A DNA stretch of 23,676 nt from positions 1-23,676 of the forward strand of contig JBIIGV010000039.1 of the NCBI GenBank assembly GCA_044236265.1, read 5' to 3'. Below the pieces are notes generated by a model. The model was not told the DNA's origin. It saw nothing but the letters and a program-made list of their open reading frames with translations, and made no database searches. The stretch comes from Oligoflexales bacterium (GTDB lineage Bacteria; Bdellovibrionota_B; Oligoflexia; Oligoflexales; RGVZ01). The translations under genes and the position numbers were made by a program. Position 1 is the stretch's first letter, and every line of letters starts with the position of its first letter. This document shows, piece by piece, positions 727-18,706 of the stretch.

Positions 727-2889
727 TCAGGCAACCTTCTTGATCATCACCATCGCCTTATCGTCAGGCAGTACGGACTCTTTTCCGACCTCAATGATGG
801 TTTCAAACAGTTTATCCGAAGTCATGGCGCTGCGATCAAGGCGGCCCATGGCGTCAACTAGTTTGCGCATGGGGCGTGCGCCCTCAAGACAGCCATCAGA
901 AAAGCATACTAGTAGATCTCCAGGAGCTAGCTGGAGGTCAATGAATGATGTTTTGACCTCTTGCTGAGATCCCAAGGTGCCGCCTCGTGAGCTAATCAAT
1001 TTGATTTTATCTGCAGAGATATGGAGCCATCCTGCCATGCCATGAACCGCGATGCGGGCCTTTCCATCAGTTGAAACATCGGCGAGGCAAAACGATGTTC
1101 CGGCTTTGCCGCGGAATAAATTGAATAAATGATAGTTCAAATCGCGGATTGTTTCTTCGATTCCTTTATCCTGTGAGTCTTTCTGTCTAAGTGAGCCAAT
1201 GGTGGCAGCGACAGCTAAAGCTGCTGCCGGCCCCTTTCCAGTGACGTCACCTAGAATGAAGCGTTTGCTGCCGTTGGCACCGCTTCCTTTGAAAATCCAA
1301 TCTCCAGCCATACGTTCAGCAGGGATATAGTGGAAGCTGAAGTCCAAGGACTCCTCTCGTCCTTGCATTGGTTCTGGTAAAAGGGTGCTTTGTACCGTCG
1401 AGGCAAGCTCTAGACGGTCATTCAGGTTCTGGAGCTGGAATTGTAATTGACGTTGCTGAGCATGTTGCAGTGCACTCTCTACGCCCGTGATGGCGGCCAT
1501 AAAAATAAAGAGAATAAGATCAAAGACCCAGGTTAGATTGACAATGGTCAGATTGAATTGAAGACTTTTGGTATTGGCTATGAGTTTTGCAAGGTCGACA
1601 AAAGCCAGTGCGGTACCAATAAATAGTATCACTGCAAACGCGAAGGCAATCCTTGATCGCATGCGGGAACGTTCTGATTCAGAGAGCAGGCCAGCCATAA
1701 CGACAGCAAGGACAGTGGAAGATACGTAGACAAGAGGTTTAAGAACGATGGCTGTAATGTCCAAAGAGCGGGTAGCTAAGCTGTAGCTGACGCCGAATAG
1801 ACAGACTGCGCTTTGAATGCCCATCAACACAAAGCCTGCGACGATCAATCTCTCAACGAGTTTAATGTCCAAGCGGAAGAAGGAGTATATAAATCTAGCT
1901 AACACCAACAACGAAACGTTTCTTGCCATTAACGCAAGCAGAGCTGCAGTTTGGCCCTTGACCCCCAAATCGAGCGCATAATCCGATCTGAAAAAAAGTT
2001 CGAAGCTAGACGTAAGACCAAAGAGAAGAAACCAGCCAATCTCCCGGTTGTTTCTTGCAAATACAAACAGTAAAGAGAACACAACACAGAACGCAAGCTT
2101 TGGTAGCAGGTAAAGAAGTTGTAAGCTCGTCGCGTTATCATGACTAAAGAAGGTGAGAGGCGAAAGCAGTGCTCGAGGGCCAATCACTAGATCTCCGCGA
2201 TTCGCGATGCCTTGATAGGGAAGTGTACCAATATTGGCCTTGATAGCGATATCAACAGACCCATCAGATCTTATAAACTCAGCAGGTAGAGGGGCTAGCA
2301 TGGTTTCTTGGGTGCCTTGAAAAACGAGCTGCTGGTTTAAGTAAAGATCCCACGACTCTGCAAACATTAGTATCGTGTGAAGGCTGTACGGCTCTCTAGC
2401 GGCAGCTTCTTGAATGTTTTGCGGTAGAGTTATGCGAGCTCTGTAATAAACGGCATCACCCGATTGCCAATCTTTGATGGGGAACTCTCTTAGTGGGAGA
2501 ACCGATTGACGCTTGAAAAAGGAGGACGGAGTAGAAGGGTCGCGGTAACAGTCTTCGCGCTCGCAGCCCAAGCTTTTGCCGTAGTGCAGATCCCAGCGGA
2601 CACCTTGTTGCGTCAGATTGTAAACATTTGGTGCACTATATGCGGTCGGTGGCCAATTTCCGTAATCAAGAAGTCTCGTTACAAAAAACATTGACGATAA
2701 AACCATGGTCCCAATCGCAAGGACGATGGCAATCGTTTCCTGGTATTTACTAGTTGGTGATCGGCTTGTGGAGTCACGGGCAATCATGTGGTCCCGCAGC
2801 TTGCGGGTGAGCGACAATTTAATGAGTAACCGATCGATCCCTGCGGCGATCTTGTCTACTCTTAATTGTAACGCTTCCCTGCGTTTCAT
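727..2889 (-). CDS. Membrane sensor PP2C/SpoIIE (RsbU-like) Ser/Thr phosphatase with an extracytoplasmic domain and about 7 TM helices
   Basis: C-terminal PP2C motifs ELASTVQSTLLP, AGDW, GDVTGKG, FSDG, DDKA; preceded by a coiled coil, several hydrophobic helices and a Cys-containing periplasmic domain. Start may be further downstream. Confidence 0.88.
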   Translation of the reverse strand: MKRREALQLRVDKIAAGIDRLLIKLSLTRKLRDHMIARDSTSRSPTSKYQETIAIVLAIGTMVLSSMFFVTRLLDYGNWPPTAYSAPNVYNLTQQGVRWDLHYGKSLGCEREDCYRDPSTPSSFFKRQSVLPLREFPIKDWQSGDAVYYRARITLPQNIQEAAAREPYSLHTILMFAESWDLYLNQQLVFQGTQETMLAPLPAEFIRSDGSVDIAIKANIGTLPYQGIANRGDLVIGPRALLSPLTFFSHDNATSLQLLYLLPKLAFCVVFSLLFVFARNNREIGWFLLFGLTSSFELFFRSDYALDLGVKGQTAALLALMARNVSLLVLARFIYSFFRLDIKLVERLIVAGFVLMGIQSAVCLFGVSYSLATRSLDITAIVLKPLVYVSSTVLAVVMAGLLSESERSRMRSRIAFAFAVILFIGTALAFVDLAKLIANTKSLQFNLTIVNLTWVFDLILFIFMAAITGVESALQHAQQRQLQFQLQNLNDRLELASTVQSTLLPEPMQGREESLDFSFHYIPAERMAGDWIFKGSGANGSKRFILGDVTGKGPAAALAVAATIGSLRQKDSQDKGIEETIRDLNYHLFNLFRGKAGTSFCLADVSTDGKARIAVHGMAGWLHISADKIKLISSRGGTLGSQQEVKTSFIDLQLAPGDLLVCFSDGCLEGARPMRKLVDAMGRLDRSAMTSDKLFETIIEVGKESVLPDDKAMVMIKKVA

Positions 2890-2908: not shown

Positions 2909-4192
2909 TTATTTTTTCGCAGCTACAGACTTGGCAGCTGTGGCGTTGAGTTCTTGCATTAGCCAGTCTCTCAGCGATGCGGATCCAGATCGACCAAGCT
3001 TGGACCAGTCAAGTGTGCTGTAGCTTAGGCCCTTTTCATCAGAGCTATACAGCATGCCGATAGTCGGTGATGTGACGTCTGCCAAATCAAGTATAAGATT
3101 GCCGATGTCTGAGCGACATGACTCCATGAAAACAACGTTGAAGAAGAGGTCCCGCTCTTGATCTAGAAGGGCGCTAAGAAGTTGGAACTTAGTAATTCCG
3201 GCAGCAATGGCCCCTTCTGGAGAACTGCCGCGGATGAGACCGGCTGCGTCTAGTCCCTCTTTGTCTAGACCATCTTTTTCCAGTCCGATTTTATCTAGTC
3301 CCTCCTTGTCGAGACCATTCTTATCGAGACCATCTTTCTCCAATCCGATTTTATCTAGCCCATTCTTATCCAGGCCATCTTTGTCGAGACCGTCTTTCTC
3401 GAGACCATCCTTGTCGAGTCGAGTTCCTGAGCCCATCACCATAAGCGGTGACGCTTTCTTCTTCACAAAGCGGTCGCGAAGGAACGGCTTGGTGATGATT
3501 CGAGACTCATAGGCAATTTTTGGTGTAATCGCCAATTGGTCATTACCGTGAGATTTGAACACGACGGAATATTCAAATTTTTGTGTCGGAAATAGGCTGC
3601 GTACAATCTCCAACGAGGCATTGAGCATATCTGGATGCGACAATGGGCTATGCTCATGGATGGGATTACTTTTAATGCGAGCATAAATATCGGCTAAGCG
3701 CTTCATCTCGGCAGCTGGGATTGGCTTGGCCTGATTTTTGGGTAAGCAATATAAAACGTTATTTTGTACAATTCCCTCGTTGGATATTATGACTGCGCCA
3801 GCACTGATGGAGGCTTTTTCGGAGCAAATTGAGTTTTTAATTCCGAAAATATCCGTATAAACGGCATCAGCAAAGTTATTGAAATCGTTCTCTAAGCTTT
3901 CTGCAGCCTTTTCGAGGCTTGTGGCAGAAATTTCGGGATCCGACTTTGCATCGCTGAGGGTGGCGAGGATATTGTTGCGCTCGGATCTGTATGCAGCAGT
4001 ATCCATCGGATTGTTAGCGTAGTAGACAAGAACTTGAGGTTTGTTGGGATCGCGCGAAAGATTATTGCTAATCTGCAATCCTGGTTTCAGATCCTTAAAT
4101 GCCGCGAAATCGCTACCGAACTTACATCCGGTGATTGCTAAAAAAGCTGCAAAAATTGAAATGGCTTTTGCATGGCAGACAAATTGTTTCAT
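2909..4192 (-). CDS. Clostripain (peptidase C11, clan CD)-like lipoprotein with an internal pentapeptide repeat
   Basis: Lipobox LAITGC; VLVYYANN resembles the C11 N-terminal strand; HPDMLNASLEIVRSLFP...VVFKSHG (His215) and VVFMESC (Cys359) match C11 dyad contexts; LYSSDE follows. Confidence 0.72.
   Translation of the reverse strand: MKQFVCHAKAISIFAAFLAITGCKFGSDFAAFKDLKPGLQISNNLSRDPNKPQVLVYYANNPMDTAAYRSERNNILATLSDAKSDPEISATSLEKAAESLENDFNNFADAVYTDIFGIKNSICSEKASISAGAVIISNEGIVQNNVLYCLPKNQAKPIPAAEMKRLADIYARIKSNPIHEHSPLSHPDMLNASLEIVRSLFPTQKFEYSVVFKSHGNDQLAITPKIAYESRIITKPFLRDRFVKKKASPLMVMGSGTRLDKDGLEKDGLDKDGLDKNGLDKIGLEKDGLDKNGLDKEGLDKIGLEKDGLDKEGLDAAGLIRGSSPEGAIAAGITKFQLLSALLDQERDLFFNVVFMESCRSDIGNLILDLADVTSPTIGMLYSSDEKGLSYSTLDWSKLGRSGSASLRDWLMQELNATAAKSVAAKK
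3242..3421 (-). repeat. Twelve tandem 15-bp units encoding GL[DE]Kx pentapeptides
   Basis: RLDKD GLEKD GLDKD GLDKN GLDKI GLEKD GLDKN GLDKE GLDKI GLEKD GLDKE GLDAA, read directly. Codons differ synonymously between units. Confidence 0.97.
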
Positions 4193-4266: not shown

Positions 4267-4453
4267 GCAATTGTAGAAAAAGGCTGTGATTATGGGTGCT
4301 TATTTGAGTCATATCCAGCTCGGAGATCGCCTTGGAACAGTGACTTCCTCATATCGTGCCTTGTGGCGACGTTTGGTTGGCGCGCAGATGTGCGCTAGAA
4401 TATTGAGATTAAGTTTGTTTATTGGAAATAAATCAATGCGAGGGGGTCCAGGG

Positions 4454-7408
4454 ATGAGGCGTTCCATGTTTGCGCTTCTGGCTGCGGTTGGCATGATGTC
4501 GGCTGCGCCAGCGATGGGAAAAGTATCAATATCTAAAAACGGCAATCAGACAGTTTACGACATCGAGATCGAAGGCGTGGATATGACGCCGGTGAGCATT
4601 GGTGGAAAAGAGTTTGTGTCGGCTAAGTTTAAGGGTGTTGAGCGTTTCCATGCTGTGAAATACGAACTTGGAAAACCAGAAATTCCGGTAGTTCGACTCA
4701 TGGTCGATGGGGACGTTGTGGTGCAGGCCGTTGGTTCTAATTTATCCGGTGTATCGGATCCGACTAAGGCACTGAAGCCAGCGCAGCCGTCGTGGAGCAA
4801 ATCTCTTAAATTCCCCCCACCAGTCGCTTACGATGCTCCGACCTACGAGACTGACATTATGAATGTTGAGCCTCTTTACGGAGTTGAAAAAGTCGCCTCT
4901 TACCGTGGATTGCCGCGGCAGATGGTGACCCTCAACGCGATGCGTTACAACCCGGTCAGTGGTTTTTACCAGTATCACAATCACTATCGCGTAACGGTGA
5001 CCAGCAGTTTCAAAGAAGCTCAGACGCAGCCGACGCTTGCATTGGTTGTTGGCGCACAGTTTGCGTCAAGCCCATCGGTTGATAATCTTGTACGTTCAAA
5101 AGAGTCGCAAGGTTTTAGAGTTAGGAAGATCATTGTTGGTCAGAATGGTGTGACAACAGATGAGCACATTCGCGCTGCGCTAAAATCCATTTACAATGAA
5201 AATGTAAATTTACGTTTCGCGCTGATTGTTGGCGATGCTGAAGACGTACCAGGACATGACTCAACACACATTAGCGGTGTTACAGATCATTTTTATCGCG
5301 CTATTGACACTGATAATTACGAGTCAGACATTAATGGCCCAGACATCGGCGTTGGTCGCTTGTCTGTGAACTCTGAGGCCCAATTATCAACCGTGGTAAC
5401 AAAAATTGTACGCTACACAGACGGACGCTTTGCCGCCGATCGCTGGATGCAGCATCCTGCCTTCATCACAACTCACGATCGCTGGCAAACCGCAGAGGGG
5501 ACTCACAATGCTGTGATTGCAAAGCATTTTGCTCCGCGCGGCTATGACCGTGTATTTCCCGATGCATCGGAAAAGGGTGGAGACAAACTTTATCCAATTT
5601 CTCTCAACGCGACAGATCAGCAAATTGTTGATCACATGAAGCAAGGCCGTTTCATTATCAATTTCAGTGGGCATGGATCCCATACGGGCTGGGAGGATGT
5701 CACGACGCAGGATGTTTTATCCATGAATGATCCCAACGCTCTGCCGTGGGTTATTTCCAACGCGTGTATCACCGGAGACTTCAGAGAAGAGCCGGTATTT
5801 GCAGAAACATGGCAGCGTCACCCAAATGGTGCGATTACGTTTTGGGGATCCATGGATAGCTCTTACTGGGATGAAGACGATATTCTTGAGAAGGCGATGT
5901 ACGATGCAGTGTTTGATCGCGGTACTCGATCCTTTGATTTGATTCATCAATATGCTCTTGGAGAGGTGTGGCGCCACTACGGCGGACAAGCGAAGAGCGC
6001 ATACTATTGGGAAACTTATGTGACATTTGGTGATCCGTCTCTTGAAGTGCGGACACGTAAATCGACGGATGCGACGGTGGAAGGTCCTGATGCGCTGATC
6101 ATTGGAGCTGAAGACGCATCTTGGCGTGTGACGACTGAAGACGCTCCTGTTGTTGGTGCGCGCGTCACTCTGCACCGTGCATCTGATGGTAAAACTGTGA
6201 CCGGAGTCACAGGTCAACAAGGAGAGGTGACTCTGCCATTGTCCGCATTCGGCGCAACAGCAGAACCTGTCACACTTATCGTCGCCGGCGGCGATTTACG
6301 CCGTGTCTCTAAAGAGCTTGCATTGATTGCACCGAATCAGCCACATCTTGGATTTTCTGGTTGGACACTCAATGGCCGCACGGGTGGCGGTGTTCACGTC
6401 GGTGAACAGATAAATCTTGGCGGTGTCGTTGAAAACTTCGGCATGGTAGCTACAAGTGGTGGTCGTCTGATCATTGAGAGTGTTGTTGGTCCTGGTGCTG
6501 TCACTAGGTCAGAAGTGACTGTTCCGCCGATGGGGAGCAGAGAGCGTATTTCGTTGGCTGCAGGATTGGCGTTTACCGTAAATGCCGAGGCGCGTCGCGG
6601 TGAGGTCGTTCGTCTTCAGCTACGATGGGAGACCAATGAAGGTCAGACCGGAACAGTAGTTTTAAGCTGGCCGGTGCTGCGTGCAGATATTGAAGTCACA
6701 GCTGTGGACTACGGAGCTGAGGGTGTCGAAGGAGTCGGAGCTGAGGGTTATTTATATTTAACCATCAAAAATATCGGCACTGAGACCATTCGTTCCCTTG
6801 AGCTTACTCCTCAGAGTGGTACCTGTACCGCTGGAGCTGATGGCAAACTTACGATTGCTGAATTGGCGCCGGGAGCAACGGCTCGCGTTCCCCAGAGCAT
6901 CCATGTCACGACCGATGGTCAGTGTAGCAGCGGTTCTGCAGGGAGCATTTCACTTGCAGGCCATTATCAGAGCGTTTCGCGTCAGTTATCTCTTGCAGCT
7001 GGTGTCAATTATTTAGTGGGTGTTTTGGAAACTGATGTTGAGCGCATGGAGGGACTTGGTCTCGCGATTCCTGATCGTGGCGAAGCATTGAGTCAATCCA
7101 TTCAGGTGAATGGCAGCGGACCGATCAAGGATATTTCGGTCTTTGTGAAGATCAACCACACTTACATCGGCGATCTTGAGGTTCACTTGGTATCACCTAC
7201 CGGTAAATCTGTACTGCTCCACAACCACACTGGCAGCGGAAACGACAATATCGAGCAGCGTTATGGTCGCGGCGGAGTCAATATCGGAGAGCTTGATACT
7301 CTGATCGGTGACGAGGCCCGGGGTGAGTGGAAGTTACAGGTTCGGGACACTATGGCCTCCGACACTGGGACTTTGGAGGCTGTCGAGCTGTCCATTAGGC
7401 ACTGGTAA
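4454..7408 (+). CDS. Gingipain-like peptidase C25 with propeptide, Ig-like domains and a C-terminal proprotein-convertase P domain
   Basis: Likely start ATG 4454 (GAGGGGG SD; signal peptide MRRSMFALLAAVGMMSAAPAMG) rather than 4286. Motifs: GKPEIPVV (propeptide), LIVGD, TDHFY, DIGVGRL, FSGHGS (His), SNACITG (Cys), FGDPSL; P domain INHTYIGDLEVHLVSPTG...GEWKLQVRD...DTGTL. Confidence 0.9.
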   Translation: MRRSMFALLAAVGMMSAAPAMGKVSISKNGNQTVYDIEIEGVDMTPVSIGGKEFVSAKFKGVERFHAVKYELGKPEIPVVRLMVDGDVVVQAVGSNLSGVSDPTKALKPAQPSWSKSLKFPPPVAYDAPTYETDIMNVEPLYGVEKVASYRGLPRQMVTLNAMRYNPVSGFYQYHNHYRVTVTSSFKEAQTQPTLALVVGAQFASSPSVDNLVRSKESQGFRVRKIIVGQNGVTTDEHIRAALKSIYNENVNLRFALIVGDAEDVPGHDSTHISGVTDHFYRAIDTDNYESDINGPDIGVGRLSVNSEAQLSTVVTKIVRYTDGRFAADRWMQHPAFITTHDRWQTAEGTHNAVIAKHFAPRGYDRVFPDASEKGGDKLYPISLNATDQQIVDHMKQGRFIINFSGHGSHTGWEDVTTQDVLSMNDPNALPWVISNACITGDFREEPVFAETWQRHPNGAITFWGSMDSSYWDEDDILEKAMYDAVFDRGTRSFDLIHQYALGEVWRHYGGQAKSAYYWETYVTFGDPSLEVRTRKSTDATVEGPDALIIGAEDASWRVTTEDAPVVGARVTLHRASDGKTVTGVTGQQGEVTLPLSAFGATAEPVTLIVAGGDLRRVSKELALIAPNQPHLGFSGWTLNGRTGGGVHVGEQINLGGVVENFGMVATSGGRLIIESVVGPGAVTRSEVTVPPMGSRERISLAAGLAFTVNAEARRGEVVRLQLRWETNEGQTGTVVLSWPVLRADIEVTAVDYGAEGVEGVGAEGYLYLTIKNIGTETIRSLELTPQSGTCTAGADGKLTIAELAPGATARVPQSIHVTTDGQCSSGSAGSISLAGHYQSVSRQLSLAAGVNYLVGVLETDVERMEGLGLAIPDRGEALSQSIQVNGSGPIKDISVFVKINHTYIGDLEVHLVSPTGKSVLLHNHTGSGNDNIEQRYGRGGVNIGELDTLIGDEARGEWKLQVRDTMASDTGTLEAVELSIRHW

Positions 7409-7801: not shown

Positions 7802-8470
7802 TCAATATGCGCTAAGCTCGCCTAAGTATTTTTCATAATCGGATTTGGATAGTGTAGTTATTTCCTTTGAAATCAAAAGTCCTGCTAGGGATCTAGATTT
7901 TTCAGCTGTTACTCCGGGTGTCCAGTGTTGTTTGATCGTAAGCTCAGTCAGCAGTGCGGCTATTTCTGTGGTGCCAGTGACATCCCATAATTCTTGCGAG
8001 AACAAGACTGCTCCATTGCTTTCCTCGTAAATTCGCTCCAAATTACATCCAGTTGGAATCGATGCGCCAGGAACTGGCGTGACTGTTGATAAAGCGTTGG
8101 CCGCAAAAACGATATTTTCCAATCGCGACGTCATGGCCGTTTTAAGTGTCGAAGCACGGTTTCCATCAAGGCGTGTGAGCTTATCCACTATGGACAAGCT
8201 GGCTTCCGATAAATTGCCACTAGGTTGCAAAATAGAAAGATTTTGTTTGGAAAGTTCTTTTGTCACTAGCGACATCACGGATCTGATCTTTGCGTCCGAT
8301 CTGCAAACTATGGCAATTCCTTGCTCAGAATCTTGCACATACGTATCGCCAGCTGGATAGAAGCCTGGTCCAACAGTGCTGCCGCCGTCTTCTAGATTGT
8401 TTGTCCCACCACAAGAGACAAAACACAGTAGGTAAAAAAATACTGGTAACAAATAAAGACGCTGCGTCAT
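7802..8470 (-). CDS. Hypothetical lipoprotein
   Basis: 222-aa ORF with lipobox CFVSC, 10 nt downstream of the TIGR02147 gene; IVC...IPTGCNLE...ELW...AALL pattern. Confidence 0.8.
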   Translation of the reverse strand: MTQRLYLLPVFFYLLCFVSCGGTNNLEDGGSTVGPGFYPAGDTYVQDSEQGIAIVCRSDAKIRSVMSLVTKELSKQNLSILQPSGNLSEASLSIVDKLTRLDGNRASTLKTAMTSRLENIVFAANALSTVTPVPGASIPTGCNLERIYEESNGAVLFSQELWDVTGTTEIAALLTELTIKQHWTPGVTAEKSRSLAGLLISKEITTLSKSDYEKYLGELSAY

Positions 8471-8480
8471 GTTTCTAACC

Positions 8481-9335
8481 CTACCTTATTTGAGGTTTGG
8501 TGGTGGATTCCGTTAGTGGGAATACTTGAAGATTCACATGGTAAACGTCCTCACCATTATTTTCGACATGAAATTGGTGAAGATCTTCATGGAACTTTTT
8601 CACTAACGCTTTAATTCGAGGTAAATCAGACTGTCTTACCGCGATATTAGTCCCGTATCCAGTTCGACGCTCAAGGGGAGTATGATCGATTGCGTCTTTT
8701 GCTAAGTCAAGAAATCCTTTGTGGTGAGCTCTAAGAGCCGCATTTGGAATGCCTGAAAGTCCAACAAAGATTTCTCTATTTGTCTTTGCAATTTTATTTC
8801 TCCCAACTCGTTTGATCAGGCCCAGTCTAAAAAGACGATCGATTGCAAGTGATGCTTGAACGGGAGTGATTTTCCCTCCAAGCTTTTTTGAGATCCAAAA
8901 GGAATCATCCTTGAACTCCTCAAGGTCTATCATCTCTAGGATAGCTAGGTGATGCCAGTCAGCAATGATTCGAAACTGGTCTAAACTCATAGTCTCTTTT
9001 TCATTGCTTTGCAAACCTGCACCCTTGGCGGCGGCCACGATATCTTGAAGATCTTTGGGATCAGAACCTGCAACCCTAGAGGCGAGCATCAGTGATAGCC
9101 ATTGCATCTCTCGGCTGTCCAAACCAAGTACTCGCCCCAATCTGTCAGCTAGGTCCTGGCGAAAGGATCTGGTTCCTCTGATGACCTCAGACAGAAGAGA
9201 TGGATTTTGATATCCAAGCTCTCTTGAAAATGACCGCAAAGAAAACTTTGGATCCTCGACTTTCCGCGCGGTCATCACGCCTGCGAGCCATTCCCTTGGA
9301 TCAGAGAAAGAAAAAATATTTGATGGCGGTTTCAT
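8481..9335 (-). CDS. TIGR02147 / DUF4423 family protein with N-terminal HTH
   Basis: NIFSFSDPREWL...PKFSLRSFSRELGYQNPSLLSEVIRGTR (HTH), DWHHLAILEM, LFRLGLI, LRAHHKGFL...A, VYHVNLQVFPLT: typical family signature. Confidence 0.88.
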   Translation of the reverse strand: MKPPSNIFSFSDPREWLAGVMTARKVEDPKFSLRSFSRELGYQNPSLLSEVIRGTRSFRQDLADRLGRVLGLDSREMQWLSLMLASRVAGSDPKDLQDIVAAAKGAGLQSNEKETMSLDQFRIIADWHHLAILEMIDLEEFKDDSFWISKKLGGKITPVQASLAIDRLFRLGLIKRVGRNKIAKTNREIFVGLSGIPNAALRAHHKGFLDLAKDAIDHTPLERRTGYGTNIAVRQSDLPRIKALVKKFHEDLHQFHVENNGEDVYHVNLQVFPLTESTTKPQIR

Positions 9336-9354
9336 GAAGGAAGTTTACCATGTT

Positions 9355-10089
9355 TTAGTCGGTGATAACGATAGGAATTTCCTTTGAGTACCAAGAGCTT
9401 GATTTCTGTCCTCCGACATCGGGATTGCAGCTTTCAAGGTGGCCAGTAATCGATCGTCTAACGTAAATTTTGGCTCTACCTAACGGAAATTCTTTTAACT
9501 CTTCTCTCGTGAAAGTTACGGAGGGCGGGTTGATGACAGTTTTTTGAAAGGTAACGGGATTGGATGCTGAGTCGCTTGTAATGTGAACAGTTACCGTGGT
9601 GCGTGTGTCTAAATCGTCTCCAGAAAGTTCAACTGTGATGCCAGCATCTAGCGAGTTTTCGGAGTCGGGTTGCGGGGCTTTTACAAATAGTGCTTTAGGT
9701 GTTTCTAGGATATTTGTGAGCACTTCGCCGGAACTAGTCGTCCAGGCAAATGTGTAGTGTTCGGCAGGGGTTTTCGTGGTTGTTTCCAGTTTGTAGTAGC
9801 TACCTGTTGTGTCAATCACGGCTTCACTGCCATCGTGGTATACCATCTGCTTGTTATCAACGCTCACATTGCTAGGTGAAATCAGTCTTACGGTGGTGCC
9901 TGTTCGACCAGCTACTCTATATTGTGCGTGCATGAATAGTTTTGCTGAGCTCTCGAAATATCTCAGCTCATAGGATTGATAGATTTTATCGTTATTGACA
10001 TCTGTTGAATCAATGGTGTCTGTAGATGCGCCGCAGGAGCTTAACATCTTACCTACCAACACGAATGCAAAAGCAAACTTAGTTTTCAT
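9355..10089 (-). CDS. Hypothetical beta-rich lipoprotein
   Basis: 244-aa ORF with lipobox MLSSC and GAGGGAG SD; first gene of a three-gene minus-strand operon. Confidence 0.82.
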   Translation of the reverse strand: MKTKFAFAFVLVGKMLSSCGASTDTIDSTDVNNDKIYQSYELRYFESSAKLFMHAQYRVAGRTGTTVRLISPSNVSVDNKQMVYHDGSEAVIDTTGSYYKLETTTKTPAEHYTFAWTTSSGEVLTNILETPKALFVKAPQPDSENSLDAGITVELSGDDLDTRTTVTVHITSDSASNPVTFQKTVINPPSVTFTREELKEFPLGRAKIYVRRSITGHLESCNPDVGGQKSSSWYSKEIPIVITD

Positions 10090-10989: not shown

Positions 10990-12453
10990 TTAATCCAATA
11001 ATGCATCCAGTCCTTGCCGGGTTTTAATGGATGGTACATTCGTCTTTCCAGCAGCTCCTGTGAATACAGGGCGGTACATGTCATTGCCGCGGATAATGCT
11101 TTTCCTTTTCGGTAAGCAGGCAGATCCTCTCTTTAAGCAGGTGATAGCCCTTTGGTAGCCTAGATTCATTTCGTAATTGTATCGTTGCGCCATTGTGTTT
11201 CCAGTCAGGTCGTCTGGACGATCCAATAGTAGTTTTTTCTCTGCCTCGGTGGGTAACATCTCCAGGTCTGTCCACCAGCGCGAGACTTCCTGTAGATCAT
11301 TAATTTCAACATCATACCAAGTCTTCATCACGGTCGACTCTGTGGTGCCATACTCCCATCGACCTGAGGAAAGAGCGCGAGCCGCAGGAAATAGACGCTT
11401 TGCATCTTGCATAACGCCTGGCATGGAAAATCCACCGTTATAGACCCGGGTTTTTCTCTGGAGGCCGTTTACAGAATAGCGCACTAATTTCGCATCTGTG
11501 GTTTCAGAGATTGGAAGAAAGTAGGTGGGTTCAGCAATGCTGGCAAGCACGGCTAACTTAACGTCCTCACCGTTTTCCATTAGCCTGACGTCACACAGGC
11601 GTTCTTCTTGGCTGATATTTTCAGTTAAATATTTAAACATCACAGGATCTGCAAAATAGGTGCAAATCTTCCCGATTTTCACCAGTCGAGAGGAAGGCGC
11701 ATAGCCGGATTCCCAATAAGAAAAATCTCCCATATCAAAGCGCCTCGTTTGTGCGCTCGGAGTAGCCAGCCAGGCGCGCCTATCGTTGATATCCTGGTTG
11801 GAGGTGGTGATGATTGTTGGTAGCTGCGGCACACAAGACCCTTTACCCGTGATGTGGTCGACCAGCGGGATCATAGGGTTAATCGGTGCTCCAAATTCCC
11901 GGCCTTGTTTGATTGCAGAAAGAATTTCCAGAATTTTTTCAGAGGTACTCTCTTTTACGAGTGAGGCGGGAAATTGTGTCATGATGGTTTGAGCTTCGCG
12001 GATTGAATCAGCCGTAAATCCACGACAGGTAAACCACGCAGCGAGAACTGAGCCGCTGCTATTACCCGTGATGACAATATCGCCGCCGGTTTGAGCGGCC
12101 GGGTTTGTCTCTCGTCTAAGAAGCCCCATGCGTTCGTATGCTGCTTTCGTGCCGCCAATATCCCAGGTCAGGGCTGTGCCTTTGCCTTGGTAGGCGTAAA
12201 TGAGTTTCGGGTTAATAGTCTCCGCGCGATTAGCTGCGATTTTCATTTGCATGCCAGAGCGAGTCGTTATGATTTTAGTTCCGCCCTGAAGAACCGGAGT
12301 TGCCACTTCATTTTGCGGCTGTGTCTGATCGGTTATTTTTTCTGGTTTCTTTGACGAAATGGACTCTTTGCCGGTACCGCAGGCTGCGACCACGAAGAGA
12401 CTTGCGATCAAAACACTCTGCTCTCGAAATCTCTTGTTCGGTGTAAGGCTCAT
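10990..12453 (-). CDS. Patatin-like phospholipase lipoprotein (atypical)
   Basis: Lipobox VAAC; oxyanion loop-like DIGGTKAAY; GNSSG nucleophile elbow; ASIAEPTYF; YNGGF at the DGG position. Confidence 0.72.
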   Translation of the reverse strand: MSLTPNKRFREQSVLIASLFVVAACGTGKESISSKKPEKITDQTQPQNEVATPVLQGGTKIITTRSGMQMKIAANRAETINPKLIYAYQGKGTALTWDIGGTKAAYERMGLLRRETNPAAQTGGDIVITGNSSGSVLAAWFTCRGFTADSIREAQTIMTQFPASLVKESTSEKILEILSAIKQGREFGAPINPMIPLVDHITGKGSCVPQLPTIITTSNQDINDRRAWLATPSAQTRRFDMGDFSYWESGYAPSSRLVKIGKICTYFADPVMFKYLTENISQEERLCDVRLMENGEDVKLAVLASIAEPTYFLPISETTDAKLVRYSVNGLQRKTRVYNGGFSMPGVMQDAKRLFPAARALSSGRWEYGTTESTVMKTWYDVEINDLQEVSRWWTDLEMLPTEAEKKLLLDRPDDLTGNTMAQRYNYEMNLGYQRAITCLKRGSACLPKRKSIIRGNDMYRPVFTGAAGKTNVPSIKTRQGLDALLD

Positions 12454-12782: not shown

Positions 12783-13601
12783 GTGGATCGTCCTGTCATT
12801 ACAACTTACAAAGACCCCGTTCGCTTCCTGGCGGATATGTTGGCTTTTCGTAAAGCGCAGGATCCCAGTTTTTCGGTTCTGGCTATGACGCGTTCCCTGC
12901 GAAGAATCTCGCCAACGCTCGTCTCTTTAATTCTGAGAGGGCAGCGCAAAGTTACGTTGGACCGCGTCGATGAGCTGAGTAAGTTGCTTGGTCTCATGCC
13001 TGCCGAAAAACAGTACTTCAGAGATTGGATCGCTCGCGCAGAGGATCCCAAGGCTGAGCAAGCGGTCCAGAAGTTTGCTGAAACACCAGCCACGCGTCGT
13101 AAGTTAACCTCAAGTCACATTCTCAACGATTGGGTTAACGTCTTTGTCAAAGATGCCTTTGACCTTGAGCATATCCGGTCTAATCCAGATGAAATCTATG
13201 CGCTATTGGGTGGTGTTGCATCCAAGAAACGTATTGATCAGTCGATTAAGTTTTTACTGCAGCATGGGTATTTGAGGCGAAATGCTCAGGGTCATTTCGT
13301 TCCGGAAGTTCCTTTGCATTCTGTGGATCAAAAGATCCCTAATGATAAGGTACGAAAATTTCACAAGGCTCTTCTTCACAACGCCAAAGAGGCTATAGAC
13401 CAATACTCTTCAGATCAAAGATACGCTAACGCCTTGGTTCTTTCGCTGAACCAAGAGACATACCAAAAACTTTTAGCCTTGATTGCAGAGCAAGCTGAGT
13501 CATTGCAGTCATTTGCTGAAAATTTGCAGGAGGGATCAATGCTTTATCAGGTTACCATCAACGTCAGTCCTACGGGAGGCCACCTTGAAAAAAATAAATA
13601 A
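12783..13601 (+). CDS. TIGR02147 / DUF4423 family protein with N-terminal HTH
   Basis: RPVITTYKDPVRFLADML...DPSFS...SPTLVSLILRGQRKVT, YFRDW, DWVNVFVKD, LLQHGYL, VRKFHKALL...A, LYQVTINVSP. Confidence 0.88.
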   Translation: MDRPVITTYKDPVRFLADMLAFRKAQDPSFSVLAMTRSLRRISPTLVSLILRGQRKVTLDRVDELSKLLGLMPAEKQYFRDWIARAEDPKAEQAVQKFAETPATRRKLTSSHILNDWVNVFVKDAFDLEHIRSNPDEIYALLGGVASKKRIDQSIKFLLQHGYLRRNAQGHFVPEVPLHSVDQKIPNDKVRKFHKALLHNAKEAIDQYSSDQRYANALVLSLNQETYQKLLALIAEQAESLQSFAENLQEGSMLYQVTINVSPTGGHLEKNK

Positions 13602-14811
13602 AAACAAAATCTATTCTTGGACACTTTTGCTGGCCGGTGGGCTGAACTTGTTCTGCTCTGAAATTCTCATGGCCAAGGCGGTTCCGTCTTCTACATTCGT
13701 TGGAAACGGCGGCGACGCGCAAGATTTGGATCTTGGCGTTACGCTTGCAGTCATATCGAATGTAAGTCAGAGTCTCGACGCCGGATCCAAAGATACGCTT
13801 TGTAAGTGTTCTGATGAGTGGCAGGAAAACGATATCTGCAGAGTGCTACGGCAGCTTTCATCCCAAGAAGTAAAAGCGTGTCAGCAAATTCTTCTAACTT
13901 ACGGCCAGCAGTTGTCCGAACTCGCCGGTCGAAAATCTCCAGTTGTTTATGACTGGTCTTACTCTGATATGTCGGTGCGGTCTCAAGCCCAGTCACAGAG
14001 GGGGCGTCCAGTTGATGCCGTTACGCAGCCACAAAAAAAGCGCATCATCATAAATAGGTCAAGGTTCCAGGCGATGCCGCCTTCCTATCGCGTGGCTCTT
14101 ATCACGCACGAGTTGTTTCATTTGATACCGTTTGAAAAGGGTCTTTTGACCGATGAGGAGCCTGCCCCTCCATTTGCGTCAGGTCGCGCCATGCTGAATG
14201 CGTTAGGTGCTGCTATTGCAATGGAAGCTAATGAGCGTCAGGTTTTTAAGGACTTTAATGAGCTTCGTGACGTCTCACGTGCAGGTAAGGTGCACCGTCT
14301 TTATCTAGAGGGTCGAAATATTCGACATCCAGAGAAAAGCGCCAACTCGCTTCTCAAAAGTACTAACAGTGGAGGAACTGCATTAGGTTACATCTATCAG
14401 CCAGGTAGTCTCGGATTAAACATTTCAGTTGAAACCACTGGATATTCAGGCTCGGCATTTGGTATCGGGATTTCAGAGAAGCAAGCCATCTATCAACTGG
14501 GAGTCCAATACCGATTTTTCCCATGGAATGGCTACCTTTCGCGATGGAATGAATTGTATGTCACGACTGGTTTTAATGCTGGATTTGGAACGTCATATTA
14601 CAAGGCTTCAAGTAAGTACGTTGATAAAAGCGACAAGGGGTCCCTTCTGAGCATTGGGGGAGCGGCAAAAATGTTTATTCCACTTAATAGGGATTTGTGG
14701 ATCACAGTCGGCAGCGAGTTTCGACAGTTGCGTTACGAGTATAAAACGCTAAGGATAAAGACGATTGAAAATCAAGTTGTGAATACGATTGGGGGTGCTT
14801 ATGGATTCTAA
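13585..14811 (+). CDS. Secreted protein with GNGG motif, HExxH (zincin-like) domain and C-terminal outer-membrane beta-barrel
   Basis: Likely TTG start at 13585 (GGGAGG SD at 13574-13579, overlapping the end of the upstream gene). Signal peptide, VGNGGD, ALITHELFH, amphipathic beta strands, terminal GGAYGF (BAM-type C-terminal Phe). Confidence 0.75.
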   Translation: MKKINKNKIYSWTLLLAGGLNLFCSEILMAKAVPSSTFVGNGGDAQDLDLGVTLAVISNVSQSLDAGSKDTLCKCSDEWQENDICRVLRQLSSQEVKACQQILLTYGQQLSELAGRKSPVVYDWSYSDMSVRSQAQSQRGRPVDAVTQPQKKRIIINRSRFQAMPPSYRVALITHELFHLIPFEKGLLTDEEPAPPFASGRAMLNALGAAIAMEANERQVFKDFNELRDVSRAGKVHRLYLEGRNIRHPEKSANSLLKSTNSGGTALGYIYQPGSLGLNISVETTGYSGSAFGIGISEKQAIYQLGVQYRFFPWNGYLSRWNELYVTTGFNAGFGTSYYKASSKYVDKSDKGSLLSIGGAAKMFIPLNRDLWITVGSEFRQLRYEYKTLRIKTIENQVVNTIGGAYGF

Positions 14812-15979
14812 AATTTTCACCATGCTTCTGGCAGCATTTATATTAGTTTCTTGTGGAGCCGATGGTAACTCGAGCAAGGGAATAATCGGTAGTCCATTGC
14901 AACAAGAGTCGGGAATATTCAACTCATACGGTATTGAGACTTCGAAGGTATTTGTCGTTGATGAGACGACCGATAGGCTATTGGGTATTGGTCTCTCTGA
15001 CTTTGCGATCAAGCATCAGTTTGAGCTGAAGAAGAAAGAGGATGAGCACGTCACAATTATGGACATCAACGAAAAGTTTGTGATCGACTTTTCCAAGAAA
15101 CATCTGAATATTTATGGCCTTGATGGCGGTGTTTATGATCGTCCGTTTAATTTTCAAGGCACGCCGACGTCTGCTGCTTACAATCCTTTTACGCGGACGA
15201 TGATTATACAAGATAACCTACAAAGCGTCGGCATGATGCAACTGGCAGAAAACGGGTCGATCACCAGCTCTTGGCTTGGTGGCCCCCAACTTGCTAGCGG
15301 CACGTCGATCGTGGCGGGTGACTTGGATAAGACTGGCCGCCTGGTACTTGCGATGAGTGACGAGACGATGGCGGTCGTTGATGTTACTCAATCCATTGCG
15401 CAACAGTCTTGGCAGCAAACTGCATTCAGTCCAGGCCTCGGTAAAGTGACGTGGGTTGCTCCTGATAGCCGTAATCCAGATTTGCTGTTAGTTTCGTCCA
15501 GTACCAAAATTGCTATTATAAACTCGGCCACAAAGGTTGTCGTGGACCAGAAGACGCTTGATAGTTCCTCGAGTATTAGATTTTCATCCAAAGCTGGTCT
15601 TGGGCATGTTTTCACTGAAAAAGCTGGCGTAGTCAGTCTTTATTTTATCAATAGTCAGGGTGCCATAGGTGTAGAAAGTTTGGCGCAGGCGAGTTTGACA
15701 GGGCTGAAACAGTCGTTCCTTAGTGCAGATGCCGCTTCAATAACCCTGCTGTTTGAAGTTGGATATCGGGAGCGCTCCGTTCTGAAGATGCGCCTTTCTG
15801 ACGCGCTAGTGGAAGTTGAAAAGAGTATCGATACGACTGGTGAGACAAGCATCAATGGCTCAACGGTTTTTGTCAATTTTAAGGATCCTTTAGGTGCTCT
15901 GGAACTTCACAGTTTGACGAGTGATGATGTAAAGCGCTTAGAAGGTTATAATTTTGACTATCTTAGAGCCCATAACTGA
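14801..15979 (+). CDS. Lipoprotein, probable beta-propeller
   Basis: Likely ATG 14801 (GGGGG SD); lipobox ILVSC; repeated blade-like segments (VFVVDE, AAYNP, MAVVDV, WVAPDS, IAIINS); overlaps the upstream stop. Confidence 0.78.
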   Translation: MDSKIFTMLLAAFILVSCGADGNSSKGIIGSPLQQESGIFNSYGIETSKVFVVDETTDRLLGIGLSDFAIKHQFELKKKEDEHVTIMDINEKFVIDFSKKHLNIYGLDGGVYDRPFNFQGTPTSAAYNPFTRTMIIQDNLQSVGMMQLAENGSITSSWLGGPQLASGTSIVAGDLDKTGRLVLAMSDETMAVVDVTQSIAQQSWQQTAFSPGLGKVTWVAPDSRNPDLLLVSSSTKIAIINSATKVVVDQKTLDSSSSIRFSSKAGLGHVFTEKAGVVSLYFINSQGAIGVESLAQASLTGLKQSFLSADAASITLLFEVGYRERSVLKMRLSDALVEVEKSIDTTGETSINGSTVFVNFKDPLGALELHSLTSDDVKRLEGYNFDYLRAHN

Positions 15980-15992
15980 GCTCTGACATCTC

Positions 15993-16060
15993 TGTTTACG
16001 CCTCCTCGTCCATTAAGTTAATCTCCAGCAGGAGATATGACACACGAGGGGGCGTAAACA
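15993..16060 (+). promoter_or_regulatory. Predicted RNA stem sequestering the SD and first start-codon base of the type III PKS
   Basis: TGTTTACGCCTCCTCGT (15993-16009) pairs with ACGAGGGGGCGTAAACA (16044-16060): 16 Watson-Crick pairs plus one G-U. Inner hairpin ATCTCC-AGCA-GGAGAT at 16021-16036. Confidence 0.65.
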
Positions 16061-17136
16061 TGTATATTTTATCCGTTGGAATGGCCTTTCCTGGCCCGCT
16101 GCATAAACAAGATGATTTATTACCAGAGCTCAGTCGAGCCTGGGGTGACAGAGTCACCGATCGGGAAAGAAGCCTTCTCGAACGACTGTCTAAATCTGCT
16201 GGTGTCCAATCAAAGCATCTGGCTATGGATCCTGGTGATTACTCGGTGAAGACGAGCTTTACTGAGCGGAATCGAGTGTTTCAATCGGTTGGGCTTGAGC
16301 TTGGAAATCAGGCGGTGTCGTCAGCTCTAAATGCAGTGGATGCGCTTGCGTCAGATATTGATGCAATTTTCTTTACGACAGTTACCGGTTTGTCGGTTCC
16401 AAGTGTCGACTCGTTGGTGGCAGGCTCGCTTGGAATGCGAGAAAATATCAAACGCGTTCCACTTTTTGGTTTGGGCTGCGTTGCTGGTGTCGCTGGCTTG
16501 GCGCGTGTTCATGACTACTTGTTGGCATGGCCGACCCATGCGGTTGTTCTTTTGGCTGTCGAGCTTTGTTCTTTGACGCTTCAAATTGATGACTTAAGCC
16601 CCGAGAGCATCGTCGCTTCGACGCTGTTTGGTGATGGTGCCGCTGCCGTATTGTGTGTCGGTGAGAATCATCCGCTAGTGGGCCGTGCGGCTCTGGAGTC
16701 CTTGGCGTCGACGTCAAGGCTTTACCCGAACACCAAGCACATCATGGGTTGGGATGTGGGTAGCCATGGTTTTAAGATTTTGTTGGACCCAGGTGTGCCG
16801 CAGTTGGTTAAGGATTTCTTTGCTGACGATGTTCGGCGATTTCTTTCTCAACATAATTTGGAAACAAGCGACATTCGTTCATGGATCAGTCATCCTGGTG
16901 GACCAAAGGTTCTGCAAGCGTTGACGTCATCTCTTGATCTGACAGATGACGCGCTTTCAGTGTCACGGCGGCAGTTGGCGCAGGTTGGCAATTTAAGTAG
17001 TGCTAGCGTCTTAGGAATTCTCAAGCAAACGATCATTGAGCATGGAGATAAGATGGTGAAACCAAGTGATCATGCTTTGATGATGGCGATGGGGCCAGGA
17101 TTTTGTTCGGAGCAGCTACTATGTCGCTGGACTTGA
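16060..17136 (+). CDS. Type III polyketide synthase (SrsA/BpsA-like)
   Basis: Cys-His-Asn triad in GLGCVAG, SHPGG, GNLSSAS; also VELCSL, LFGDGAAA, MGPGF. Confidence 0.95.
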   Translation: MYILSVGMAFPGPLHKQDDLLPELSRAWGDRVTDRERSLLERLSKSAGVQSKHLAMDPGDYSVKTSFTERNRVFQSVGLELGNQAVSSALNAVDALASDIDAIFFTTVTGLSVPSVDSLVAGSLGMRENIKRVPLFGLGCVAGVAGLARVHDYLLAWPTHAVVLLAVELCSLTLQIDDLSPESIVASTLFGDGAAAVLCVGENHPLVGRAALESLASTSRLYPNTKHIMGWDVGSHGFKILLDPGVPQLVKDFFADDVRRFLSQHNLETSDIRSWISHPGGPKVLQALTSSLDLTDDALSVSRRQLAQVGNLSSASVLGILKQTIIEHGDKMVKPSDHALMMAMGPGFCSEQLLCRWT

Positions 17137-17639
17137 TAGCTGTTATTCTATTTTTAGGAACCATCGTCGAGCGATTGTTTGAACTGGTGGTGTCAGGGCG
17201 CAATGCCCAATGGAGCCTGAGTCGTGGGGGGGTTGAGTATGGTGCTAACCATTACCGGTGGATGGTGGTGATGCACAGTGCGTTTCTCGTCGCGATGATC
17301 CTTGAGTTTCTTATATTTAATCCTGACGTGTCTCATGGTGTTCGTTTCGCGGCGATCGTGGTTGCCATGCTCTGCCAGATTATGCGCTGGTGGATCATTC
17401 ATACGCTCGGTCATCAGTGGAACACGCGCGTGATCGTAGTTGCTGGAATGGAGCGTGTCAGGCGTGGTCCTTACCGATTTCTGAATCATCCCAATTATGT
17501 TGTAGTCGCTCTTGAAACTGTTGCTTTGCCGCTGGCTTTTGGTGCATGGCGCACGGCATTTGTTTTTTCCTTCTTGAATGCATTGATGATGCGTGTGCGA
17601 ATTGGGGTTGAAAACCAAGCGCTGAAGGAGTTGCGATGA
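17121..17639 (+). CDS. ICMT-family membrane methyltransferase (SrsB/BpsB-like)
   Basis: ERLFELVVSGRN...GGVEYG..HY, RWWIIHTLGHQWNTRV, GPYRFLNHPNY, RIGVENQAL. Start ATG 17121 with GGAG SD, overlapping the PKS end. Confidence 0.92.
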   Translation: MSLDLIAVILFLGTIVERLFELVVSGRNAQWSLSRGGVEYGANHYRWMVVMHSAFLVAMILEFLIFNPDVSHGVRFAAIVVAMLCQIMRWWIIHTLGHQWNTRVIVVAGMERVRRGPYRFLNHPNYVVVALETVALPLAFGAWRTAFVFSFLNALMMRVRIGVENQALKELR

Positions 17640-18706
17640 TGTCGCAGCAGCATAATTTTTATGATCTTATAGTGGTCGGCGGCGGTAGCGCTGGAATGGC
17701 CGCAGCGATTCACGCGGCCCAGAGCGGTAAGCGTGTTAAGGTTTTTGATGCCGCGGGGCCCGATTTTGATAAACCGTGTGGTGAGGGTTTGATGCCGCCT
17801 GCGATTCAAGCGCTGCGCCAACTCGGTGTGAGAATGCCGGATGCAAGTCCCCTGTCTGGGGTGAGATATTTTGTTGATAGTGGTCGGTCCGCGTATGCGC
17901 CGTTCTCGAAATCACAGGCTGCCATGGGGATTCGGCGCCGACTATTACGGCAAGCGATGTGGCAGAGGGCGTCAGAACTTGGTGTGGTCATCGTTCAAGA
18001 AACCGCCGACCAAGTTTCTGTTTCCCCGGAGTCAGTCGTCGTCAATCATGATACGGCGGACTACCTATGCATAGCATCTGGAGCGCATTCTCGACTACTC
18101 AAGGATCTGGGGCTGCGCTCATCAAGACGTAAAAGACCAACAGGGCAAAGATCTGGACTAAGGCGCCACGTGAATGTGAAGCCTTGGAGTGATTGTGTTG
18201 AGGTCTATTGGCGTGATCATTGTGAGCTGTACGTCACTCCGGTGTCCGAGTCGTGCGTAAATATTGCAATCCTCAGCTGGAACCCATTCCAGTTCGACAA
18301 TATGTTGAAACTGTTTCCGGAGGTTTTGGCGAAAATTGAAGGAGCAACCTGGGGTGATGAAGCGTCGGGACGAGCGCCGCTTCTGCATCGGGCATCAAGA
18401 GTTCAATCTGGTCGGATTTTTGTAGCAGGTGATGCGGCGTTATTTCTTGATGCTATGACTGGGGAGGGAAATACGCTAGCAATCCGCAGTGGAATGGCGG
18501 TTGCCCGGGCGATAATGGATGGTCGTCCTTCTATTTATCGATGGTATTGGCTGCAAGTTGTATGGCGTTACTGGTTGTTGACTACGCCAGTTCTATTAGC
18601 AAGTCGACAGTTATGGATGCGTAACAGACTTTTGAATCTGGTGGTTGGGTTTCCCTGGCTACTGAGGATTGGAGTTGCATTTCTCAGTACGACATCAAAG
18701 CGGTGA
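17636..18706 (+). CDS. FAD-dependent oxidoreductase/monooxygenase (SrsC-like)
   Basis: DLIVVGGGSAG Rossmann motif, DKPCGEGLMP, GDAA...DAMTGEG; ATGA overlap with the methyltransferase. Confidence 0.9.
   Translation: MMSQQHNFYDLIVVGGGSAGMAAAIHAAQSGKRVKVFDAAGPDFDKPCGEGLMPPAIQALRQLGVRMPDASPLSGVRYFVDSGRSAYAPFSKSQAAMGIRRRLLRQAMWQRASELGVVIVQETADQVSVSPESVVVNHDTADYLCIASGAHSRLLKDLGLRSSRRKRPTGQRSGLRRHVNVKPWSDCVEVYWRDHCELYVTPVSESCVNIAILSWNPFQFDNMLKLFPEVLAKIEGATWGDEASGRAPLLHRASRVQSGRIFVAGDAALFLDAMTGEGNTLAIRSGMAVARAIMDGRPSIYRWYWLQVVWRYWLLTTPVLLASRQLWMRNRLLNLVVGFPWLLRIGVAFLSTTSKR

Follow-up and report, generated by a model that had tools for sequence, protein, structure and literature searches.

A candidate peptide-signalling cassette of a clan CD protease with an internal repeat array and an adjoining 7TMR-DISM-like receptor in Oligoflexales

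The protease gene and its relation to C11 peptidases

On the reverse strand of the 23,676-nucleotide stretch of DNA analysed here (the window), a gene for a putative cysteine protease is followed 19 bases downstream by a gene for a membrane receptor. Related loci were found in freshwater Oligoflexales-type genomes. The protease gene comprises the following features:

2909..4192, minus strand: clan CD (caspase-hemoglobinase fold) cysteine protease of 427 aa, a predicted lipoprotein of an unnamed family nearest to C11
4124..4192, minus strand: probable signal peptide with a lipobox-like end at Cys23, from the sequence and its conservation in homologues
3548..3556, minus strand: Lys213-Ser-His215, the catalytic His with an invariant Lys two positions before it
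3242..3421, minus strand: array of 12 five-residue units (residues 258-317) in a low-confidence segment (residues 246-328)
3116..3124, minus strand: Glu357-Ser-Cys359, the catalytic Cys with an acidic residue that corresponds in position to PmC11 Asp177
3038..3043, minus strand: Ser384-Asp385, near the position of PmC11 Asp207 (presumed equivalent) and lost in one deep clade

The hydrophobic signal ends at Cys23, which at least 90% of 23 close homologues share; the protease is probably a lipoprotein. Translation of the open reading frame bore out the spacing given in the initial annotation, with His215 (in KSHG) and Cys359 (in MESC) 144 residues apart. The same annotation had counted 12 GL[DE]Kx units. 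Twelve contiguous units are indeed present, but only 10 (residues 263-312) fit the pattern strictly and the count was slightly overstated: Gly is missing from the first unit and Lys from the last. In 20,000 shuffles of the protein, at most two matches to GL[DE]Kx arose, compared with the 10 observed. The synonymous Gly and Leu codons claimed for the units are all there, and at the DNA level all 11 units counted differ from one another (pS 0.84, pN 0.158, pN/pS 0.19) and a higher-order period of 60 nt is present. The array is not an assembly artefact, since contigs from two other studies (X2 and X3) cover it entirely with 0 differences; among the four runs compared, the X4 contig ends inside the array and X6 has no coverage of it. 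A promoter scan gave 5 sites where 5.7 were expected, none of them between the protease and receptor genes.

Further genes were recorded in the window. Divergent from the protease gene lies a C25 gingipain-like peptidase with a C-terminal proprotein-convertase P domain (4286-7408, plus strand), and shorter C25 forms without the C-terminal part occur at four homologous loci (L047, L076, L077, L078). Two DUF4423 helix-turn-helix genes (7802-10089, minus strand, and 12783-15979, plus strand) both have neighbours that encode lipoproteins or secreted proteins of unknown family. A lipoprotein of 487 aa (10990-12453, minus strand) has no Pfam hit and contains a Gly-x-Ser-x-Gly motif, which we take to suggest a patatin-like hydrolase. 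Three overlapping genes (16060-18706, plus strand) presumably resemble a type III polyketide synthase, an isoprenylcysteine methyltransferase-like protein and an FAD oxidoreductase.

The AlphaFold model of the protease has an overall pLDDT of 73.7, with values below 50 at residues 1-32 and 246-328. Compared with known structures by VIA, it was closest to clostripain (Z 13.3, rmsd 3.5, 213 residues aligned). The four best C11 chains, from a family that includes clostripain, PmC11, iotapain and globupain, scored Z 13.3, 12.0, 11.7 and 11.0, legumain and caspases came next, and the best 15 matches were C11, legumain, caspase, metacaspase, CHAT and MALT1 chains. A Foldseek search with the same model returned nothing at E 0.001. 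As modelled, the protein has the alpha/beta/alpha caspase-hemoglobinase fold of clan CD, with His215 at the end of core strand 207-213 and Cys359 at the end of core strand 351-357. This dyad is invariant in 37 of 37 aligned homologues, as are Lys213, Gly216 and Ser384, although most of these homologues are only 21-48% identical.

The protein had been called clostripain-like. This holds for the predicted clan CD fold and for C11 as the structurally closest family, but neither a C11 profile match nor the C11 C-terminal domain was found. The proposed profile check against Peptidase_C11 (PF03415) gave no match, and hhalign of the protease family to C11 profiles reached probabilities of 3.7% and 0.1%. 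PF03415 matched 0 of 23 close homologues and no protein of this genome, and does not figure among the 25 families listed for 37 members. Searches of Pfam and NCBIfam with the protease returned no named family, PDB sequence searches gave chance matches only (E >0.05), and an ESM Atlas search offered C11 clusters as leads below the significance bar. The protease resembles a C11 enzyme in outline, yet it is not a C11 member. Common to both are His-Gly and Cys at strand ends, an acidic residue two positions before the Cys and a secreted or lipid-anchored location, and the likeness would extend to the short peptides that are excised from the His-Cys segment in C11 enzymes, as the consulted parts of three papers describe (PMC4850288, PMC10315481, PMC11296011). 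In C11, however, a Trp precedes the His where Lys213 stands here, and the residue two before the Cys is Asp, whereas it is Glu (Glu357) in at least 90% of the 37 homologues and Asp in few. The C-terminal domain of PmC11 starts at Cys+71, while the present protein ends 68 residues after Cys359 and lacks that domain. Unlike C11, the family described here has a tandem array, a dedicated receptor gene and a His-Cys distance of 72 to more than 300 residues.

The array had been placed in the activation loop. C11 enzymes are cut shortly after the catalytic His: the portions of the literature consulted give His+14 for PmC11 (PMC4850288), His+5 and +14 for clostripain (PMC11296011) and His+5 and +12 for globupain (PMC10315481), the peptide excised having 9 residues in clostripain (PMC11296011) and 7 in globupain (PMC10315481). 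In the secondary structure of our model, His215 is followed after about four residues, none of them basic, by a strand (220-223), and the array starts only at His+43, between this strand and the helix preceding the Cys strand. The array is therefore not in the C11 activation loop; judging from the modelled secondary structure and a weak hhalign alignment, it probably lies in the His-Cys segment one element downstream of it.

The array across the protease family

The GL[DE]Kx-type unit is shared by 22 of 22 close homologues in about 5-15 copies, counts that may be low because assemblies often break within the array, and it is retained between proteins just 36-40% identical. Distant homologues carry different units at the same site between His and Cys. 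In a survey of 52 proteins, picked by eye to span the unit types, 36 had a tandem array between His and Cys, none had one before the His and 16 were without a tandem array. The period of the unit ranged from 4 to 10 residues across the 36 arrays (one scored as 12 is a doubled 6), and copy numbers across the family ran from 1-2 to about 30. No one fold would tolerate periods from 4 to 10.

Between units, pN/pS was 0.00-0.42 in 27 of 28 arrays, values in which pN is biased down by the choice of units by amino-acid pattern; several of these arrays combine saturated synonymous sites with identical peptides. In the 28th (L072) the units are identical in DNA. Repeat number, whose comparison among homologues the initial annotation had proposed, varies, and differs by one unit even between proteins 92-97% identical. 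The contrast drawn there between protein-level maintenance and slippage was thus a false choice: maintenance agrees with the pN/pS of 0.19, but copy number changes as well and the 60-nt period is visible. Selection on the protein sequence of the units and copy-number change both act on the array.

Lys is not a general feature of the units across the family. It occurs in 18 of the 36 units and Lys or Arg in 21, while 15 contain neither. By raw counts, not set against background, Asp or Asn occurs in 30 units and Asp, Asn, Glu or Gln in all 36; raw counts of Leu, Ile, Phe or Met and of Gly were 31 and 29. A single cut rule valid for all units was sought and not found, and no residue was established as a common P1. 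C11 enzymes prefer Arg or Lys at P1 and some depend on Ca2+; in the present family the sequence signals bearing on such a specificity conflict. Candidate cut positions would be after Lys, after Asp, Asn, Glu or Gln, or at the recurring hydrophobic residue. Glu357 and Asp385 stand at what are presumably the positions of the acids that, according to the consulted parts of two papers, bind a basic P1 in C11 and MALT1 (PMC4850288, PMC4357240). The position of the invariant Lys213, however, is among those that form the wall of the S1 pocket in other enzymes of clan CD (PMC4357240). By position, Lys213 could form a legumain-like mixed pocket with Glu357 and Asp385. The loss of Asp385 tracks Lys-free units just partly: L066 and the deep clade without Lys have lost it, but so have several members with Lys or Arg, and the Lys-free L060 has kept it.

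Some homologues carry the automatic name of the pentapeptide MXKDX repeat protein (TIGR02953), with which they share a similar five-residue period. Against a cut-off of 41 bits, the profile scored 17.1 bits with the present protein and at most 27.3 bits in 8 tested (range 17-27), and the match covers the repeat only; this naming is a mis-annotation. Three family members matched Pfam Decapeptide (E down to 2e-6), and many unrelated proteins share similar aromatic five-residue repeats. Most of the 150 matches listed in the homologue search consisted of the repeat only and were left out of the family, and L082 and L083 were dropped from it as false matches. Outside the phylum, a homologue occurs in the cultured Planctomycete Lignipirellula cremea (WP_145051747.1). 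The Planctomycete-type homologues P0149, P0159 and P0165 have an extra domain-sized insertion ahead of the repeat region, and P0154 has a fused C-terminal extension.

The partner receptor and its linkage to the protease

The receptor gene of the window and the second protease-receptor pair of the same genome have the following features:

727..2889, minus strand: partner receptor of 720 aa, with membrane anchor, beta-sandwich, seven-helix bundle and SpoIIE/PP2C phosphatase
2134..2634, minus strand: predicted receptor ectodomain, a GH2-type sugar-binding beta-sandwich (residues ~86-252; VIA, Foldseek)
1441..2130, minus strand: predicted seven-helix membrane bundle in GPCR-like arrangement (residues ~254-483; VIA)
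739..1266, minus strand: SpoIIE (PP2C) output domain (residues 542-717; Pfam PF07228, E 1.4e-17)
G000:C225:3441-7052 (locus L010): second pair, with about 5 copies of a unit of eight residues and a tail-to-tail receptor with adenylate/guanylate cyclase

The ectodomain model gave a VIA Z of 13.3 (rmsd 2.7 over 138 residues) and a Foldseek E of 6e-5. For the bundle, VIA Z was 13-15, values that are common for helical bundles. The 7TMR-DISM_7TM profile (PF07695) had no hit in the receptor of the window and gave weak hits in three homologues (16.5-20.3 bits, cut-off 29). From its model the partner appears to be a 7TMR-DISM-like receptor, in which a beta-sandwich, a seven-helix bundle and a signalling output are combined. 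It shares with 7TMR-DISM proteins this architecture and the interchange of PP2C, cyclase or kinase outputs, but it falls below the Pfam cut-off and constitutes a distinct subfamily tied to a protease gene. To our knowledge, the ligands of 7TMR-DISM receptors are mostly unknown; in the literature searched we found no peptide ligand and no protease partner for them. Because the ectodomain fold is of a carbohydrate-binding type in known structures, the ligand could also be a glycan or an ion. Complex prediction of the receptor (sensor and membrane part) with the full protease scored 0.00, which is evidence neither way. Elsewhere in the window, a membrane cyclase (21105-23261, plus strand) shows a distant relationship to the partner receptor (E 1.5e-5), and its neighbours there include no protease of this kind.

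Protease searches yielded 43 protease genes, all gene-context counts being confined to this phylum. After setting aside five at contig edges, two without the Cys and one without a unit, 35 were assessable. By hand count, a membrane receptor abuts the protease in 31 of these 35 intact genes (27 receptors of the same family, two of another membrane PP2C type and two CHASE2 kinases), the four without one being L045, L060, L065/L072 and L114. No p-value is attached to this pairing because the loci are kin and not independent. The pairs are arranged in tandem or tail-to-tail, with PP2C, cyclase or kinase outputs. The genome of the window contains exactly two proteases and two close receptors; each pair abuts, and repeats and outputs differ between the pairs. 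The contig of the second pair also holds the last part of a very large surface protein of Ig/fibronectin type, which contains glycine-rich domains (G000:C225:3-3359, plus strand). At L048:1056-4762 and L058:6265-10055, a CHASE2 histidine-kinase gene pair abuts the protease in place of the 7TM receptor.

Among 130 genomes, 28 matched the first protease profile and 6 more the second, to which 3 of these 6 had themselves contributed. Twenty-nine genomes were receptor-positive and all 29 were also protease-positive, although in G040 the genes are not adjacent. Of the five protease-only genomes, two hold the dead copies, one has the CHASE2 arrangement and the remaining two have the PP2C receptor of the other type. 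Two loci, L004 and L006, are labelled Polynucleobacter and Bdellovibrio, while their gene content is that of Oligoflexales loci; the labels are probably unreliable, and these contigs also occur among the same-genus genomes. In the reverse test, 5 of 12 unlinked receptor loci had an adjacent protease that had been missed, each with its own array. Three of the remaining receptors begin at contig ends (L089, L093, L094), and beside the four most distant ones (L090, L091, L092, L095) no protease was found.

Trees of the protease core and of the receptor sensor, built from 23 pairs with the array columns removed, have a deep 7/16 split in common and agree in most sub-clades. Some nodes with poor support conflict, and there were warnings of long branches. 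Where a genome has more than one pair, these belong to different clades. Both homologues without the Cys (L067 and L068) are also without array and receptor, and at L067 the gene order is as in the intact L056 and L063 with the receptor gene alone missing. Gain and loss of the dyad, the array and the receptor go hand in hand. The protease gene L055, with at most a single unit, abuts a receptor, and L061, in which no unit is evident, is still only 2.5 kb away from a close receptor. Altogether, we regard a functional coupling of the protease and receptor genes as very probable. The two homologues without the Cys (L067:4878-5942 and L068:4174-5556) are intact open reading frames, catalytically dead by sequence and free of an array, and may be called pseudo-proteases.

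A candidate signalling cassette and its alternatives

In the reading that we favour, Oligoflexia-like bacteria have a signalling cassette of two genes, of which the protease gene is one. A disordered loop in the catalytic domain of the exported clan CD protease would hold many copies of a short peptide specific to the lineage, and the enzyme would cut this array, either in cis or between molecules, so that some ten near-identical peptides might be freed per enzyme. The neighbouring 7TMR-DISM-like receptor would sense these peptides and signal through its PP2C phosphatase or, in other copies, through an adenylate cyclase or a histidine kinase. A ligand precursor is favoured because dyad, array and receptor co-occur, and because the unit is free in length, with a sequence that is conserved within lineages but differs between lineages and paralogues. 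The initial annotation had already suggested a self-processing peptide source. The adjoining receptor lends this idea strong genomic support, whereas we infer the protease activity, the cleavage of the array and the role of the peptide as ligand. We give a self-processing multi-copy precursor with its cognate receptor close to an even chance.

The array might instead inhibit the enzyme at many sites or serve as a tether. It would then act as a pseudo-substrate in many copies that controls access to the active site, or remain attached as a multivalent ligand or new N-terminus, and the signal would come from the activated protease, which acts on or binds to the receptor, instead of from a free peptide. 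In C11 enzymes the linker controls access to the pocket until it is cleaved, according to the consulted parts of two papers (PMC4850288, PMC11296011), the members with one or no unit (L055, L061) keep their receptor, and the joint loss of dyad, array and receptor is predicted equally well. Yet a single site would be enough for inhibition, so that the repeated independent amplification to 10-30 copies is left unexplained, as is the conservation of the whole unit, and the array does not lie on the C11 gating loop. We consider this explanation unlikely, although by no means negligible. An array cut by a foreign protease, be it from prey, from a competitor or the adjoining C25 gingipain-like peptidase, would act as a bait in a protease alarm, in which the cut activates the protease or frees peptides. 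The C25 gene is divergent from the protease in the window and at L047, L076, L077 and L078 and one gene off at L044, and C25 is described as cleaving after Arg or Lys (PMC4357240). This link is limited to part of one clade, however, and the absence of the C25 gene at L042, L043, L079 and L080 led us to reject it as an obligate partner. A bait region would also be expected to diversify and not to homogenise, and the protease's own dyad is lost along with the array, which makes this explanation improbable.

Two readings dispense with cleavage or with function. Perhaps with the help of bound Ca2+, the array could fold into a rod such as a beta-solenoid, which would serve the enzyme as a spacer or docking element and would escape cleavage altogether. 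In favour of this one could adduce Gly in 29 and Asp or Asn in 30 of the 36 units, the recurring hydrophobic residue, the Decapeptide matches of three members and the similar aromatic repeats of many unrelated proteins. Against this stand a pLDDT below 50 across residues 246-328 and the occurrence of periods from 4 to 10 and of 1-2 to about 30 copies at one site, and we give it a slim chance. Neutral expansion by slippage in a tolerant surface loop would account for copy numbers that vary among close relatives and for the DNA-identical units of L072. It has very little probability indeed, as pN is far under pS in 27 of 28 arrays, the unit type is kept at 36-40% protein identity, arrays recur at the His-Cys site alone and both dead homologues have none.

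Most of the dedicated peptide-receptor cassettes known are from Gram-positive bacteria. ComCDE, Agr and the Rap-Phr cassettes are examples, and the yeast alpha-factor has a multi-copy precursor. The self-processing precursor proposed here would resemble such pheromone cassettes in its lineage-specific peptide, the adjoining cognate receptor and the multi-copy precursor with concerted change, and it has the trait of linked, co-evolving signal and receptor genes, with the signal as a candidate. In the pheromone cassettes, however, a small gene of its own encodes the precursor and a different protease cuts it, whereas here the copies lie within the catalytic domain of a protease and the host is Gram-negative. 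A clan CD protease also frees a receptor-sensed peptide in plants, where metacaspase MC4 acts on PROPEP1 and PEPR is the receptor, but that precursor is separate and single-copy, the genes are unlinked and the receptor is an LRR receptor kinase. Autocatalytic BURP cyclases and borosins are enzymes fused to their own repeated core peptides, as part of PMC10107690 describes. These differ in chemistry and kingdom, their cores are terminal extensions and they have no linked receptor. We found no description of the protease family or of the cassette in the literature, where supplementary tables could hold mention.

Even without peptide release, the locus would represent an unnamed family within clan CD whose catalytic domain holds a hypervariable array and whose obligate partner is a receptor; we did not encounter such a family in the literature searched. 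It is possible, if somewhat short of an even chance, that a new class of bacterial peptide signalling is at hand, in which a caspase-fold enzyme is its own multi-copy pheromone precursor and a GPCR-like 7TMR-DISM protein the reader. Gram-negative bacteria of a predatory lineage would then have dozens of peptide types, each specific to its own lineage, and a genome would hold several pairs insulated from one another. If this is true, a candidate ligand could be read from the adjoining gene, so that many receptor-peptide pairs would become testable with synthetic peptides, and cognate and non-cognate peptides could be crossed within one genome. The design of a precursor inside its own protease would be added to clan CD biology, and there would be a handle on the cell-cell communication of uncultured Oligoflexia.
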